A stretch of 58,563 nucleotides of DNA from contig CAVWIH010000032.1 of assembly GCA_963755025.1 (NCBI GenBank), positions 1 to 58,563 on the forward strand, read 5' to 3'. Below are positions 34,510 to 39,637 of this stretch, in pieces (the stretch's first letter is position 1; the number at the start of each line of letters is the position of its first letter). The translations under genes and the position numbers were made by a program. The notes below the pieces were generated by a model, which worked only from the letters and a program-made list of their open reading frames with translations, did not search any database and was not told where the DNA came from. Source of the stretch: an uncultured Actinomycetes bacterium (GTDB lineage: Bacteria > Actinomycetota > Thermoleophilia > UBA2241).

Positions 34510-35046
34510 ATGAGCGGCAAGCCCTGGTACCGGTCGTTTTTCGTCAAAGCGGCCCTGATCGTCGTGATGGGGGCAGCGATCATGGTCGTGGTTACCGGGG
34601 GCATCGTCCTCGCGACCAACGCCCCTGCTACCGTTACCGCCGCTCCGGTGAGCGGAAACTACAACACAGCCGGCAGCTACGGCATCACTGGGTATCCCGC
34701 GCTCTCGGTCAACACGTCGTCGAGTAACGTGCCGAGCTTCATCAAGAACCCGCTCGCCGAAAAGCGGGGCGTCATCCTTCTCGTCTACTGCGCCGGGGTC
34801 ACCGAAGACCAGCAGATGCTGACCTACTTCAACACCGTCAAGGCCAAGTACGCCGCGCAGGGCTCGTTCTTCTCGTTCGAGTCGGCCCACGCCGACGAGC
34901 TCGGCGACATCCTCGCCCAGCTCAAGATCACCCAGCCGCCGGCGCTCGCCGTCATCTCACCCGACGGCAATGTCTATCAGGAGTACACCGGCTGGATCAG
35001 CGAGAAGGTCATGTCGCAGGTCGTCGCCAACGCCCTCGCCAACTAA
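34510..35046 (+). CDS. Hypothetical membrane-anchored exported protein, possibly thioredoxin-like fold without CxxC
   Basis: GGAGG SD; N-terminal TM; ...LKITQPPALAVISPDGNVYQEYTGW resembles a Trx C-terminal strand pattern; single Cys. Confidence 0.65.
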   Translation: MSGKPWYRSFFVKAALIVVMGAAIMVVVTGGIVLATNAPATVTAAPVSGNYNTAGSYGITGYPALSVNTSSSNVPSFIKNPLAEKRGVILLVYCAGVTEDQQMLTYFNTVKAKYAAQGSFFSFESAHADELGDILAQLKITQPPALAVISPDGNVYQEYTGWISEKVMSQVVANALAN

Positions 35047-35074
35047 GAGCCCTCCCACACCCCGCGATCCATCC

Positions 35075-35103
35075 CGACGCCGCCCCCACGAGGGGCGGCG
35101 TCG
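35075..35103 (+). terminator. Stem-loop after the hypothetical gene
   Basis: CGACGCCGCCCC-CACGA-GGGGCGGCGTCG, 12-bp perfect stem. Confidence 0.6.
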
Positions 35104-35146
35104 TCGCGTCCGGGGCCCGGCCGCCCGGCCGGGCGCTTTGCCCTGT

Positions 35147-35199
35147 TTGACCGGCGGTGCCTGCGTGGTACGATAATCCCGACCTTTTCTGTTGGTATT
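35147..35199 (+). promoter_or_regulatory. Promoter of the rrf2-nifS operon with an Rrf2 (IscR/CymR-like) operator
   Basis: TTGACC (35147-52), TGgTACGAT (35166-74); imperfect inverted repeat AATCCCGAC-N7-GTTGGTATT (35175-99). Confidence 0.7.
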
Positions 35200-35228
35200 T
35201 CATCCACGGACGTCACGGAGGGCACGGC

Positions 35229-35642
35229 GTGCGCATCTCGTCTCGCTGCGAGTACGGCCTGCGGGCCATGATTTACCTTGCGCGGGCCGAGGGCGACGAC
35301 CCCGTGCCCATCGCCGAGATCGCACACCGCGAAGACATGCCCACCGCGTTTCTTGAACGTATCCTCGCTCGCCTGCGCGACGGCGGGCTCGTGGCCAGCA
35401 CCAGGGGCGCGAGCGGCGGCTACCGCCTGTCGCGCGCCGCGGCGGCCATCTCCGTCGCCGACATCGTGACCGCGATCGAAGGTCCCCTGTCGCTCGTCGG
35501 CTGCCTGCCCGACGAAGGCGGCTGTGCGCGAGCGGGCAGCTGTGCTTCACAACGCGTCTGGCGCCGGCTCGACGACGCGATCAGCAGGGCGCTGGGCGAT
35601 ATCAGTCTCGATGAACTCTCCGTGGAGGCGATCACAACATGA
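35229..35642 (+). CDS. Rrf2-family regulator (IscR-like, three Cys)
   Basis: EYGLRAM, FLERIL, STRGASGGYRL, IEG, C-x6-C-x5-C. Confidence 0.92.
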   Translation: MRISSRCEYGLRAMIYLARAEGDDPVPIAEIAHREDMPTAFLERILARLRDGGLVASTRGASGGYRLSRAAAAISVADIVTAIEGPLSLVGCLPDEGGCARAGSCASQRVWRRLDDAISRALGDISLDELSVEAITT

Positions 35643-36796
35643 AGACCATCTATTTCGACCACGCGGCGACCACGGCCGTCGACCCGCGCGTCTTCGCCGA
35701 GATGGAGCCCTACTTCGTCGAGCGCTACGGCAACCCGTCCGAGATCCACAGGCTGGGCCGCGAAGGCCGCGAGGCCGTCGACCGCGGACGTGCGCAGGTC
35801 GCCGCGGCCCTCGGTGCGGCCGACAAGGAGATCGTCTTCACGAGCGGCGGCACCGAGGCCGACAACCTCGCCCTCAGCGGGTACCTGCAGCGCTTCGAGC
35901 CCGGGCACCTGATCGTGAGCGCCGTCGAACACCCGGCCGTCATGGAGACGGCGCGCTTTCTCATGCGCCAGGGCTGGGAGGCGAGTTTCGCCGGCGTCGA
36001 CCACAACGGGGTCGTCGACCTCGACGCCTACGAGGCCGCGTTCCGTCCCGACACCCGCCTCGCCTCGGTGATGTTCGCCAACAACGTGGTGGGCACCGTC
36101 CAGCCCATCAAGGAGCTCGCCCGCATCGCGCACGAGCACGGCGCGGCGTTCCACACCGACGCCGTCCAGGCGGTCGGCGCCATGCCCATCGACGTCGCCG
36201 AGCTCGGCGTCGACCTGCTGTCGCTGTCGGGCCACAAGCTCTACGGCCCCAAGGGCATAGGGGCGCTCTACATCAAGCGCGGCACTCGCGTGGGCCCCAT
36301 CCTGCACGGCGGCGGCCACGAGCGCCGGCTGCGCTCCGGCACCGAGAACGTGCCCGGCATCGTCGGCCTGGGCGCGGCCCTCGCCATCGCCGTGGCCGAC
36401 CTGCCCACCGAGGGACCGCGCCTCGTGGCGCTGCGCGACCGGCTGATGGCCGGTCTGCTGGCGGCCATCGACGACACCATCGCCCTCGGCCATCCCACCG
36501 AACGGCTGCCGGGCAACGTCTGCGTCTCGGTGGCCTATATCGAGGGCGAGTCCATGGTCCTGCAGCTCGACGGCAAGGGCATCGCCGTCTCCAGCGGCTC
36601 GGCCTGCGCGTCGGGCTCGCTCGAACCGTCGCACGTGATCCTCGGCATGGGGTACCGCGCCGAAGAGGCTCACGGCAGCGTCCGCGTGACGCTCGGCCGC
36701 GAGAACACCCAGGACGAGGCCGACTACTTCCTCGAAGTCTTCCCGCCCATCGTCGCGCGGCTGCGCGAGATGAGTCCGCTCTACGTGAAGAGGTAA
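35639..36796 (+). CDS. nifS: Cysteine desulfurase (NifS/IscS type)
   Basis: YFDHAATT, FTSGGTEA, HTDAVQ, SGHKLYGPKG, SSGSACAS. Confidence 0.96.
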   Translation: MKTIYFDHAATTAVDPRVFAEMEPYFVERYGNPSEIHRLGREGREAVDRGRAQVAAALGAADKEIVFTSGGTEADNLALSGYLQRFEPGHLIVSAVEHPAVMETARFLMRQGWEASFAGVDHNGVVDLDAYEAAFRPDTRLASVMFANNVVGTVQPIKELARIAHEHGAAFHTDAVQAVGAMPIDVAELGVDLLSLSGHKLYGPKGIGALYIKRGTRVGPILHGGGHERRLRSGTENVPGIVGLGAALAIAVADLPTEGPRLVALRDRLMAGLLAAIDDTIALGHPTERLPGNVCVSVAYIEGESMVLQLDGKGIAVSSGSACASGSLEPSHVILGMGYRAEEAHGSVRVTLGRENTQDEADYFLEVFPPIVARLREMSPLYVKR

Positions 36797-36800
36797 GCGC

Positions 36801-37214
36801 ATGTACACCGATCTCGTGATGGATCACTTCTCGAACCCCCGCAACGTCGGTGAGGTCGAGGAACCTGACGGCGCCGGCCAGATCGGCAACCCGGTCTGCG
36901 GCGACGTCATGCGTATGACGATCAAAGTCGAAGACGACCGCATCACCGACGTGAAGTTCAAGACGTTCGGCTGCGGGGCGGCGGTAGCGACCTCGAGCAT
37001 GGTGACCGAGATGGTCATGGGCAAGACGCTCGACGAGGCCGCCGAGATCTCAAACAGGGCTGTGGCCGAAGCGCTCGGCGGGCTGCCCGCCCAGAAGATG
37101 CACTGCTCCAACCTGGCCGCCGACGCCCTGCATCTGGCCATCGAGGACTACCTCACCAAGGCCGGCCGCAGCGACGACGTCGCGAAGGTCCTCGGAAAAA
37201 AAGCGTCGTCGTAG
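36801..37214 (+). CDS. nifU: Fe-S cluster scaffold NifU/IscU
   Basis: DHFSNPRNVG, GNPVCGD, FGCGAAVA, KMHCSNLA. Confidence 0.96.
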   Translation: MYTDLVMDHFSNPRNVGEVEEPDGAGQIGNPVCGDVMRMTIKVEDDRITDVKFKTFGCGAAVATSSMVTEMVMGKTLDEAAEISNRAVAEALGGLPAQKMHCSNLAADALHLAIEDYLTKAGRSDDVAKVLGKKASS

Positions 37215-38266
37215 GCCTGAGCGGCGGCGTCGATAGCGCCGTGGCCGCCCTCGCCCTGCGCGAGGATGGCTACGACGTGCGCGCCGCCACCGTGAAGCTT
37301 TGGCCGGGCGACGACGAGCGGAGCTGCTGCTCGGCGCCGGCGGTGGCGCGGGCGCGCGACAGCGCGCACGCCATCGGGGCGCCGCACTACTGCGTGAACG
37401 ACGAGCCGCGCTTTGCGGCCGGCGTCGTCGCGCCGTTCGTCGACGCGTACCTGGCCGGCGAGACGCCCAACCCCTGCATCGAGTGCAACCCGGGCCGCTT
37501 TGAGCGCCTGCTGGCGCTGGCCGACCACTTCGGCGCCGCCTGGATCGCCACCGGCCACTACGCGCGCATCGTGCGCGCCGCCGATGGCGCCCGTGTGGCG
37601 CGCGGCCGCGACCGCTCAAAGGACCAGTCGTACATGCTGTGGCGCGTGCCGCCCGAGACCCTCGACCGCCTGGTGCTGCCGCTCGGCGAGCTCACCAAGC
37701 CCCTCGTGCGCGAGCGCGCCCGGCGGGCCGGCCTGCCCCCGGCCGACGAACCCGACAGCCAGGAGGTCTGCTTTGCGCCCGGCGACCACCGCGATTTCCT
37801 CGCGGCCCGCGGCGCGCCGGACGAGGGCGGCGAGATCGTCGATACCGCCGGCAACGTGCTCGGCCGCCACGGCGGCTGCTGGCGCTTCACCGTGGGCCAG
37901 CGCCGAGGCCTGGGCGTGAGCGCCGCGACGCCCCTCTACGTGCTGGCCATCGACGCGCCTGCGCGGCGCGTGATCGTAGGCCCGGCGGCGGCGCTGGCCA
38001 CGACGACCATCGCCTTGCGAAGCGTCGTCGACCGCGGCCTCGGCGACCGCGCCGGCCTCGAGGTGCAGCTGCGCTACCAGTCGGCCGCCATCGGGGTCGC
38101 GGCGCTGCGGCTGCTGCCCCGCGAGCGGGCCGTGGTCTCGCTGGCCGCGCCGTTCGACGGCCCCGCGCCGGGGCAGTCGGCGGTCTTCTACAGGAATGAC
38201 ATCGTCGTCGGCGGGGGCATCATCACCTCGACAGCGGCGGACGTACATGAGCCTCGCGCGGTGTGA
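37196..38266 (+). CDS. mnmA: tRNA 2-thiouridine(34) synthase MnmA (CxxC type); no start before its first motif, in the -1 frame relative to nifU
   Basis: KKSVVVGLSGGVDS from 37196, SCCS, TPNPCIECN, ATGHYA, KDQSY, DSQEVCF, TVGQRRG, PGQSAVFY. Confidence 0.92.
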   Translation, partial: KKSVVVGLSGGVDSAVAALALREDGYDVRAATVKLWPGDDERSCCSAPAVARARDSAHAIGAPHYCVNDEPRFAAGVVAPFVDAYLAGETPNPCIECNPGRFERLLALADHFGAAWIATGHYARIVRAADGARVARGRDRSKDQSYMLWRVPPETLDRLVLPLGELTKPLVRERARRAGLPPADEPDSQEVCFAPGDHRDFLAARGAPDEGGEIVDTAGNVLGRHGGCWRFTVGQRRGLGVSAATPLYVLAIDAPARRVIVGPAAALATTTIALRSVVDRGLGDRAGLEVQLRYQSAAIGVAALRLLPRERAVVSLAAPFDGPAPGQSAVFYRNDIVVGGGIITSTAADVHEPRAV

Positions 38267-38305
38267 TAGGGTGTGCCCGCAAACCGAGCCCGGACCTGAG
38301 CGGCG

Positions 38306-38968
38306 ATGGAGGCGACGTCGATGACTGACTCACTGATGAGCGTGGCCGCAAGCACGCCCTCTATGGCGCTGCGCTATGCGGCGGCGTTCTTCCTTGTCGT
38401 CGTGGGCATAGGGCTCATCTACGCCCTCATCCGCCTGGGCGGCACGCTGGGCTCGGCCGAGAAGCTGCTCACCGACGTCGACACCGAGGTCGTGCCCCTG
38501 CTCAAGCAGGCCACCGAGACCCTCGACGGCGTCAACACCGAGCTCGACAAGATCGGCGTGGTCATGACGAGCGTGGTCGACGCCACCGAGAAGGTCGACC
38601 ACACCACGCGCGCCGTCGAATCGGCCATCAGCGTGCCTGCTAAAAAGGCCGCCGCCTTCGGCGCGGGCGTCTCGCAGGCCGTCTCGAGCTTCTTCAGCCG
38701 CGGCTCCGACTCAGACGAGGCGACGGCCGACGCCGCCGCCGAACCGGCCGACGCCGCCGCCACCGGCGCCTGGCGCCCGGCGGGCGCCCCCGACGCCGCA
38801 AGCTCGGCGCCGGGCTTCGCCGCACTGGACAGCGACGCCGCCGCCGCGGCTGCCGCACCCGTCACCGACGCCGCGGCCGCCACGGCTGCCGCACCCGAGA
38901 CCACACCCGTCACCGACACGCCGCCGCCGCCGGCCCCCGGCGCCACCGGCGAAGGGAGTGGCGGATGA
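38306..38968 (+). CDS. DUF948/YtxG-like membrane protein with Ala/Pro-rich tail (start may be 38321)
   Basis: TM helix followed by heptad repeat region (LLTDVDTEVVPLLKQATETLDGVNTELDK). Confidence 0.7.
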   Translation: MEATSMTDSLMSVAASTPSMALRYAAAFFLVVVGIGLIYALIRLGGTLGSAEKLLTDVDTEVVPLLKQATETLDGVNTELDKIGVVMTSVVDATEKVDHTTRAVESAISVPAKKAAAFGAGVSQAVSSFFSRGSDSDEATADAAAEPADAAATGAWRPAGAPDAASSAPGFAALDSDAAAAAAAPVTDAAAATAAAPETTPVTDTPPPPAPGATGEGSGG

Positions 38969-39234
38969 GGCTCTGGGGAACCCTGGTCTTTGGCACCGCG
39001 CTCGCCGGCGCCGGCCTTGCGTACTACGTGCGCGACCGCAAACAGGCGACGGGGCAGAGCTACGTCGACGTGCTGCGCCAGCTTCCCTCCGAAGCGCTGC
39101 GCGGCTACGGCGAAGCCCGCCGCCGCGCGCAGCTCGCCATCGACGACGGCCTGCGCGCCGCTCGGGCCCGCGAAGGTCAGGTCGATGGCGCCCTGCTTTC
39201 CGCCGCGCCGCGCGACCCCGGACCGTCGGTCTGA
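38965..39234 (+). CDS. Small YtxH-like membrane protein
   Basis: ATGA overlap; hydrophobic N-terminus and AIDDGLRAARARE; follows the DUF948 gene. Confidence 0.5.
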   Translation: MRLWGTLVFGTALAGAGLAYYVRDRKQATGQSYVDVLRQLPSEALRGYGEARRRAQLAIDDGLRAARAREGQVDGALLSAAPRDPGPSV

Positions 39235-39247
39235 AACGGAGCACCGC

Positions 39248-39637
39248 GTGGCAGACATGATCCATCTTCAAGTGTCGGCGACTCCCGCCGCCTTCTCCGT
39301 CGTGCGCATGGTGCTCGGCGGCGTCGCGGCGCGGGTCGACCTCTCGCTCGACGAGATCGACGACCTGTACGTCGCCGTCGAAGAGCTGCTCACCGCCGCG
39401 ACCGACTCCGGCGAAGCGCCGCTCCACGAGCTGGCCATCGAAGTGGTCGACGACGGCGTGAGCATCAACGCCGGGCCGTTCCGCTCCGCGGGCCTGCGCG
39501 CCCGGTTGAGCGGCCGCCGCGACGGCGGGTTCGACCTCGAAACGGTCATGCGCGGCGTCGTCGAGTCGGTCGAAGTCTGCGCGGCGCCCGACGACTGCTA
39601 CTGCGTCGTGTTCGCCAAGCGCCGCGGCGCTTCCTGA
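39248..39637 (+). CDS. RsbW-like anti-sigma factor (degenerate HATPase)
   Basis: GGAG SD + GTG; VRMVLGGVAARVDLSLDEIDDLYVAVEE typical of RsbW N-terminus; directly before a SigB-type sigma. Confidence 0.75.
   Translation: MADMIHLQVSATPAAFSVVRMVLGGVAARVDLSLDEIDDLYVAVEELLTAATDSGEAPLHELAIEVVDDGVSINAGPFRSAGLRARLSGRRDGGFDLETVMRGVVESVEVCAAPDDCYCVVFAKRRGAS

Follow-up and report, generated by a model that had tools for sequence, protein, structure and literature searches.

The question raised by the nifU-mnmA junction in contig CAVWIH010000032.1 (assembly GCA_963755025.1, from an uncultured bacterium of the Thermoleophilia) is how the tRNA thiouridylase MnmA can be produced from a reading frame that has no start codon ahead of its PP-loop, the ATP-binding motif of the enzyme. 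The contig, 58,563 nucleotides analysed at full length, is called here the window; G000 denotes the window's own genome (3.37 Mb, 70.7% GC) and g1 its genus. The observations described below make it very probable that the junction is a site of programmed -1 ribosomal frameshifting, which would yield free NifU, an iron-sulfur (Fe-S) scaffold of the IscU type, together with a NifU-MnmA fusion protein.

Anatomy, conservation and natural counterparts of the junction

The upstream gene of the pair, nifU (36801-37214, plus strand; Pfam NifU_N PF01592, E 1e-50), consists of 137 codons, has the 3' end ...GTC CTC GGA AAA AAA GCG TCG TCG TAG and stops at TAG 37212-37214. Read from 37196 in the -1 frame, the sequence gives KKSVVVGLSGGVDS and continues as a complete MnmA of 356 codons up to TGA 38264-38266, in which all three MnmA domains (HUP/PP-loop, PRC-barrel and C-terminal barrel) were matched in Pfam (PF03054, E 1e-55; PF20259; PF20258). 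According to the listing of open reading frames (ORFs), the first ATG, GTG or TTG that follows the upstream stop of the mnmA frame is GTG 37241, located 3' of the PP-loop. The heptamer A AAA AAA (37196-37202) lies in X XXY YYZ phase with nifU, its leading A coming from GGA and the rest from codons 133 (AAA, 37197-99) and 134 (AAA, 37200-02), and the stop codon is reached a few codons later. An initial annotation made from the letters alone had described the in-phase A7 run, the -1 position of mnmA and the lack of a start before the SGGVDS motif, and on all of these the sequence, the ORF listing and the Pfam matches agree.

The A7 run is unique in the 58.5-kb window (expected number 0.06; at least one such run in 5 of 100 shuffles), and it is one of 17 A or T runs of seven or longer in the 3.37-Mb genome. 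The claim that the junction is written in codons disfavoured by this genome, AAA instead of AAG for lysine and GTA for valine, was borne out by the counts in 1472 long ORFs of G000: AAA makes up 11.1% of the Lys, GTA 2.0% of the Val and GGA 3.5% of the Gly codons, and CCA, which is found at related junctions (see below), 3.2% of the Pro codons. Searches of G000 returned a single match for mnmA and a single nifU-like match, and the genome encodes both tRNA-Lys(UUU) and tRNA-Lys(CUU).

In the proposed mechanism most ribosomes translating nifU would stop at TAG 37212 and release the free, 137-residue NifU, while a fraction would slip back by one base with tRNA-Lys(UUU) on AAA in both the P and the A site (37196-37202), resume decoding at AGC 37202 and go on through mnmA in the -1 frame. 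The predicted product is a 488-residue protein, made up of NifU residues 1-134 and 354 residues of the MnmA frame. As G000 lacks another mnmA and the -1 frame offers no start ahead of the essential PP-loop, frameshifting appears to be the sole route to a functional MnmA in this genome.

To see how widely the junction occurs, loci were collected by an MnmA protein search of 41 related genomes and a species-level genome collection, and their junctions were classified by script. Removal of 15 duplicates and of two loci without the mnmA 5' end reduced the initial 110 loci to 93 distinct ones. In 56 of these, a 0-frame nifU overlapped a -1-frame mnmA with a heptamer in phase: 16 had A AAA AAA G (class A) and 40 had C CCA AAA G (class B). 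The others were 14 in-frame NifU-MnmA fusions, 15 loci with no nifU-like gene upstream of mnmA, seven in which nifU adjoined a separate mnmA without any heptamer, and one (L002) that was cut at the start of its contig, with the A7 run still visible. Class A loci belong to the window's genus and six small genera, class B loci to genus g10; the phase is the same in both. The heptamer and the G following it were fixed in 16/16 class A and 40/40 class B loci, with variable columns next to them, and this conservation, in 56 of 56 junctions and in rare codons, goes beyond what the encoded amino acids need. A comparison with relatives had been proposed as a check along with the initial annotation, and the A-run, the -1 offset and the nifU stop were found to be retained.

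A census of the family by pattern search detected the junction in 67 of 89 species genomes (18 with A AAA AAA G, 49 with C CCA AAA G), namely in 12/12 genomes of g1, in 49/54 of g10 and in one genome each of g2, g3, g4, g5, g9 and g11 (the six single-genus genomes are G012, G013, G014, G015, G019 and G021). The pattern was not found in g6 (13 genomes), g7 (three) and g8 (one). Four of the five g10 genomes lacking the pattern, which are 53-83% complete, gave no mnmA with the protein query; the fifth is G041. Five matches of the pattern outside the family had a loose AAAAG core, not A7. The source records are metagenome-assembled genomes (MAGs) of Thermoleophilia or Actinomycetota from many projects and assemblers, and the organisms of the junction family are Thermoleophilia of soil and peat. 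Two further observations were made in the course of the census. The junction of L014 (g9) and L015 (g5), CCCAAAAAAAG, contains both heptamer forms in tandem and in phase, and may represent an evolutionary intermediate between classes A and B. One g10 genome, G321, has two copies of the class-B junction on contigs C19 and C20, one of them with a spacer between heptamer and PP-loop that is 1 nt shorter; contamination, duplication or an indel could account for this.

The reading frame under selection was determined from the column entropy per codon position, summed per 60 nt, for 39 class-B and 16 class-A sequences. In class B, variability 5' of the heptamer peaked at the third positions of nifU (12.5, 16.6, 15.4 and 14.1 bits, with 0.9-9.0 bits at the other positions), whereas from 9 nt past the heptamer start it peaked at the third positions of mnmA (14.8, 18.5, 21.4 and 20.2 bits). 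The same switch of frame at the heptamer was seen in class A. Even in the overlap, 5' of the nifU stop, the share of the mnmA third positions is already 6.26 out of 10.17 bits (class B) and 4.77 out of 6.84 bits (class A). The switch being complete inside the overlap, these values indicate that ribosomes read the mnmA frame from the heptamer onward, and that the Leu-Ser codons close to the nifU stop are not the point of entry. Both ORFs are under purifying selection. The residues expected to matter for function are also preserved: in 22 of 22 family sequences the cluster-ligand cysteines of NifU (C33, C58, C102), the PP-loop residues of MnmA (S9, G10, G11, V12, D13, S14) and the MnmA cysteines C94 and C97 together with the third cysteine, C192, are invariant. 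The CxxC motif and third cysteine that the initial annotation had reported in MnmA are thus present, encoded at 37475-37486 and 37769-37771, and the window's enzyme is of the C-type, a CXXC+C class described in PMC8053098, and is probably [4Fe-4S]-dependent.

Start codons are scarce where an independently translated mnmA would need them. In the mnmA frame, the 20 codons that lead up to the PP-loop contain no ATG, GTG or TTG at 52 of the 56 junctions with a heptamer. Seven loci have an mnmA frame that is open over just 18-20 codons ahead of the PP-loop, so that entry must take place within a short stretch around the heptamer. Six of the seven family loci that lack the heptamer do have a canonical mnmA start codon. 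One of them, L081 (the G041:C1 locus), has a decayed heptamer and a TAA-ATG 12 codons before the PP-loop, and is placed inside the class-B clade of the MnmA tree (Shimodaira-Hasegawa-like approximate likelihood ratio test support of the clade, 94).

Natural counterparts of the predicted fusion exist. The 14 in-frame NifU_N-MnmA loci occur in other families of the class, and in the proteins of L025 (494 residues), L083 (491) and L026 (489) both PF01592 and PF03054 scored above the cutoff. When the best 120 database relatives of the L083 protein were inspected, 108 of them had both domains as well; these relatives come from Thermoleophilia and Rubrobacter-type MAGs and are annotated merely as MnmA ('tRNA 2-thiouridine(34) synthase MnmA'). 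The predicted slip product resembles the in-frame proteins in domain order, in size (488 versus 489-494 residues) and in the linker between the last conserved IscU helix and the PP-loop, which would have 24 residues here and has 22 in L083. The in-frame fusions differ in that they are encoded in one frame and mostly contain a degenerate IscU domain: in 11 of the 14 the IscU-like domain is without the second and third cluster-ligand cysteines, and G032, a genome with an in-frame fusion, retains a separate IscU (67% identity). In the window, one intact nifU would serve both roles. It is probable that the IscU fold serves as a tether between MnmA and either NifS, the cysteine desulfurase, or the Fe-S supply, and the window's family would then obtain a free scaffold and a docking domain from a single gene by recoding. 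Fusions of another kind were noticed as well, in which a class-V aminotransferase (cysteine desulfurase, PF00266) is joined to MnmA in proteins of about 750 residues: they account for 18 of the 38 longer relatives listed (P0006-P0020 and others), NifU_N-MnmA proteins for 8 of the 38, and they may be taken as a further sign that MnmA is often tethered to its source of sulfur.

The production of free NifU plus a fusion by a -1 slip, as first proposed in the initial annotation, is therefore supported by the conservation of the heptamer in two forms, the frame switch, the absence of start codons, the natural fusions and the appearance of a start where the heptamer has been lost.

Weighing of the alternatives

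Several observations do not favour programmed frameshifting, and they should be stated before the other explanations are considered. In E. coli, A AAA AAA is far less shifty than A AAA AAG (PMC5009743). No conserved stimulator was found with RNAalifold in 40 class-B and 16 class-A sequences or in single folds compared with shuffles: the predicted hairpins coincide with invariant coding sequence, and their distance from the heptamer is 11 nt in class B and 21 nt in class A, against the about 5-9 nt expected of a stimulatory hairpin or pseudoknot. Those of class B showed no compensatory pairs. The folding energies were ordinary, with z-scores from -2.04 to +0.59. The pairable GC stems suggested earlier as downstream stimulators thus gained no backing from either conservation or covariation. 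The Shine-Dalgarno (SD)-like GAAGG at 37184-37188, proposed in the same annotation, is present, but as a shared stimulator it had to be discarded, as it is limited to the genus; AAGG occurs in some class-B sequences at another spacing. Four junctions do contain a possible start near the PP-loop: L007 (ATG, in a TAATG overlap) and L020 (GTG, in a GTGA overlap) have one 4-5 codons before it with the A7 run kept, and L044 and L077 have a TTG, a Leu codon, one codon before it. L023 (G018:C1, genus g8) has neither a heptamer nor any ATG, GTG or TTG in its 41 open codons; the sole candidate start seen there is an ATC located 8 nt after an AGGAG. A metagenome scan, in which the flanks were fixed and 5-9 free bases were allowed in place of the run, identified 14 contigs, 12 with A7, one with A6 (L143, Ga0182022_1330499, 3.1 kb) and one with A8 (L147, Ga0182028_1368459, 2.2 kb). 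The MnmA tree, made by a quick method from 88 of 92 rows (L017, L086, L088 and L089 were dropped because of their short ORFs), does not separate a single origin of the frameshift from several, as it shows a polytomy with two changes each for classes A and B. Finally, the existence of the fusion protein is something that we infer from nucleotide sequences.

As regards the slipperiness of the heptamers, A AAA AAA and C CCA AAA both belong to the 18 motifs whose unstimulated frameshifting in E. coli exceeds 0.10%; motifs of the X XXA AAG type perform best, and 72% of the heptamers in insertion sequences are either A6G or A7 (PMC4066793). About half of the bacteria have a single tRNA-Lys (PMC5009743). 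In an organism with two, an AAA rather than an AAG codon would place the slippery UUU tRNA in the A site.

The alternative that survives best, though it seems improbable, is transcriptional slippage, by which RNA polymerase would add an A on the A7 template and the resulting A8 mRNAs would encode the fusion in frame. A homopolymer such as A7 can support realignment, in enterobacteria AAAAAAA is under-represented in each of the three frames, perhaps on account of polymerase realignment (PMC4066793), and the single A8 and A6 contigs, which may derive from DNA or cDNA, could be read in the same sense. However, 49 class-B genomes have the same junction with C CCA AAA G, which contains no long homopolymer, and a strictly kept codon phase, which tandem slippage of tRNAs requires, would be of no consequence to a slipping polymerase. 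Counting the A-run in reads had been suggested as a check, and two contigs, each from the paired-end Illumina RNA libraries of a different study (X14 record 10 and X17 record 18), bridge the run as A7 without an indel; since these are assembled contigs, minor variants would not show in them. The contigs of a DNA run (X1) leave 37098-37235 uncovered and are neutral, and X14 record 9, which ends 9 nt past the run, was not counted. Ribosomal tandem slippage is the best fit, because the phase is conserved and the runs in class B are just C3-5 and A4.

Independent translation of MnmA, started or restarted at a non-canonical codon in the overlap (CTG 37217 in the window, CTGA in class B) with the heptamer being incidental, appears less likely still. 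Its geometry is that of coupled genes, since the class-B nifU stop overlaps the Leu-Ser codons (CTGAGC), and the ATG of L007 and the GTG of L020, both in stop-start overlaps, as well as the TTG of L044 and L077, would fit it. Against this, CTG 37217, offered earlier as a site of reinitiation, is not conserved, being CTC in L014 and L015; selection in the mnmA frame begins right after the heptamer, 5' of the candidate codons; and a start at the Leu-Ser codons would delete the first beta strand, which precedes the PP-loop in all in-frame relatives. L081, having lost the heptamer, gained its ATG 12 codons before the PP-loop and not at the Leu codon. Independent initiation would also leave the 56 of 56 invariant heptamers of rare codons unaccounted for.

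There is little to recommend a contingency locus at the level of DNA, where A6, A7 and A8 variants in the population would toggle between separate genes and a constitutive in-frame fusion. The 12 A7, one A6 and one A8 contigs are what such variation might look like, and L143 (A6), L145 (A7) and L147 (A8) have an upstream flank in common. The two variant contigs are short, though, and could be assembly errors; a true polymorphism in length and cDNA made from slipped transcripts are other possible origins. A7 is the run length in the cut L002 locus and in all 16 distinct class-A loci at species level, class B is unable to vary in this manner, and an A6 allele would yield no MnmA.

The last explanation, an assembly artefact (a true A8 in-frame fusion with a miscalled homopolymer, as the initial annotation had cautioned) or a broken gene, draws some support from the A6 or A8 in 2 of the 14 metagenome contigs and from frame breaks in genes of the G000 assembly (a VWA gene, L111 ~1726) and of MAGs (the mnmA of L017, L086, L088 and L089), but it is effectively refuted by the presence of the junction, in two sequence forms and one phase, in 67 of the 89 genomes, which many projects and assemblers have contributed, by the A7 in Illumina RNA-library contigs and by the purifying selection on both ORFs. 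Among the related MAGs, frame breaks or short ORFs were seen in the mnmA of L013, L017, L086, L088 and L089, which suggests indel errors in some of the assemblies.

Known recoding systems and a possible feedback

To our knowledge, there are few housekeeping genes of bacteria in which a programmed -1 frameshift is conserved, dnaX and chlD being examples; the nifU-mnmA frameshift spans at least 67 species-level genomes. The dnaX site of E. coli has a defined SD-like element upstream and a hairpin downstream. No counterpart of these two stimulators has been demonstrated at nifU-mnmA. Otherwise the dnaX tau/gamma site (A AAA AAG) is similar, since it is likewise chromosomal and non-mobile, follows X XXA AAN with tRNA-Lys slipping, and gives two products in a set ratio (PMC5009743). 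The outcome differs: the shift in dnaX truncates the protein, whereas in nifU-mnmA it would extend it into a second enzyme. Position 7 is G in dnaX and A here, and an A in this position would fit a genome that also has tRNA-Lys(CUU) for AAG. The chlD -1 frameshift (Kuznetsov, Milenkin, Antonov 2022; PMC9227772) likewise involves a conserved, non-mobile metabolic gene and a short and a long product that share the N-terminal domain. It yields the small and medium chelatase subunits, so the proteins and the pathway are different, and its architecture of AAA+ plus VWA is nearer to the MoxR-VWA site described at the end of this paper.

The OrfA-OrfAB arrangement of IS3/IS911 elements also has an in-phase A AAA AAG or A AAA AAA near the end of the upstream ORF (PMC4066793), and there, too, the downstream ORF lies in the -1 frame, is inefficiently initiated on its own and is made as a fusion. 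In IS3/IS911 the product is a transposase, whereas nifU-mnmA is a housekeeping locus, vertically conserved across the family, for which no pseudoknot or hairpin stimulator has been demonstrated. The lambda G/GT site has in common with nifU-mnmA that tRNA-Lys(UUU) slips in the A site, and IscU, MnmA and tRNA-Lys are involved in both (PMC3296357). In lambda the modification acts in trans on a viral gene; here the product would be the modifying enzyme itself fused to IscU, which would close a putative loop.

Such loops have a precedent in prfB, where a +1 shift takes place at a stop codon and the feedback has been established experimentally; in nifU-mnmA, a feedback via tRNA-Lys thiolation is put forward here as a proposal. 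This gene, encoding release factor 2 (RF2), is the paradigm of a frameshift whose efficiency senses the activity of its own product (PMC11463598). By analogy, the nifU-mnmA site might be a homeostat of the thiolation of the tRNA wobble base, in which a low level of 2-thiouridine at position 34 (s2U34) would lead to more NifU-MnmA until the modification is restored; we regard this as a tentative suggestion, and rather doubtful. Synthesis of MnmA would require slippage on AAA of tRNA-Lys(UUU), the enzyme's own substrate, and would increase when this tRNA is under-thiolated and slips more; as each MnmA would use up one NifU, the site would also set the split between Fe-S assembly and tRNA thiolation below one cysteine desulfurase. 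Both heptamer forms have AAA as the A-site codon but differ in the P-site codon (AAA or CCA), and this, together with the separate tRNA-Lys(CUU) for AAG, fits the homeostat. At the lambda G/GT site, -1 frameshifting is higher in E. coli that lacks TusA or MnmA, and lower when IscU, a competitor of TusA for IscS, is missing (PMC3296357). The direction of the feedback is thus made plausible by the literature.

A full-text literature search, to which the frameshift-cluster supplement of PMC3711429 did not belong, returned neither a frameshift nor a fusion of NifU/IscU with MnmA. The main text of PMC3711429 contains none of the terms MnmA, NifU, IscU, trmU and thiouridylase, and the first 300,000 characters of PMC5009743 contain none of MnmA, NifU, IscU and thiouridylase. 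The class of mechanism is textbook knowledge; the gene pair, the breadth of its distribution and a slipping tRNA that is the substrate of the product are new, as far as can be told. The frameshift would explain why gene callers predict an mnmA devoid of the ATP-binding loop in these organisms, and annotation pipelines should join the two ORFs. If one intact IscU gene provides the free Fe-S scaffold and also the N-terminal domain of MnmA, this points to a physical link between NifS/IscU and MnmA, whose source of cluster or sulfur is described as an open question (PMC8053098). The locus would also be a natural system in which the synthesis of a tRNA-modifying enzyme depends on slippage of the tRNA that it modifies, so that a feedback between modification and recoding becomes testable.

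A second heptamer site and the neighbouring genes

A second in-phase A AAA AAA G was noticed in G000 outside the window, at C20:23269-23276 (L111 1270-1277). The ORF of a 278-residue ATPase of the AAA_5/MoxR type (L111 446-1282) stops two codons past this heptamer, and the -1 ORF extends over 152 codons in the direction of a VWA domain. In 13 of 13 loci of g1 and g11 the octamer is kept, as are a 6-nt spacer with the stop and a 10-bp GC hairpin whose loop is variable, an arrangement of textbook form. This is likely to be another programmed -1 frameshift, giving an AAA+-VWA fusion, and it suggests that -1 recoding at A AAA AAA G occurs more than once in the lineage; we count it in favour of frameshifting at nifU-mnmA. 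In the same L111 locus the VWA gene has a break of frame around 1720-1730, just before a MIDAS-type motif, and the ORF resumes at an ATG-ATG in another frame. The break is either a 1-nt assembly indel, in which case the assembly is not free of indels, or the mark of a pseudogene.

The coordinates of the junction and its neighbours are collected in Table 1. The true start of the Rrf2-family regulator probably lies downstream of 35157. Within 34900-39300, the sole promoter-like site upstream of the cluster is at 35147-35174, preceding the regulator gene.

Table 1. Genes and sequence elements around the nifU-mnmA junction (window coordinates)
Feature	Position	Strand	Basis or remark
Rrf2-family regulator gene (IscR/CymR-like), first of cluster	35157..35642	+	PF02082, E 8e-38, residues 27-154
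nifS/iscS-type cysteine desulfurase gene	35639..36796	+	PF00266 Aminotran_5, E 3e-85, residues 4-364
nifU, IscU-type Fe-S scaffold, 0-frame ORF	36801..37214	+	PF01592; three ligand Cys invariant
Slippery heptamer 37196-37202 and invariant G 37203	37196..37203	+	P-site Lys133 AAA, A-site Lys134 AAA (predicted)
mnmA, -1 frame, without own start before PP-loop	37196..38266	+	PF03054, PF20259, PF20258
SGGVDS codons, MnmA PP-loop (ATP-binding motif)	37220..37237	+	Translation; 5' of the frame's first canonical start
MnmA CxxC codons (C-type motif)	37475..37486	+	Translation; third Cys codon 37769-37771
DUF948 membrane protein gene, downstream	38306..38968	+	PF06103, E 2e-9

The DUF948 neighbour is also found 3' of the in-frame fusion gene of L025, where a similar ORF was recognized by eye at L025 2587-3090.

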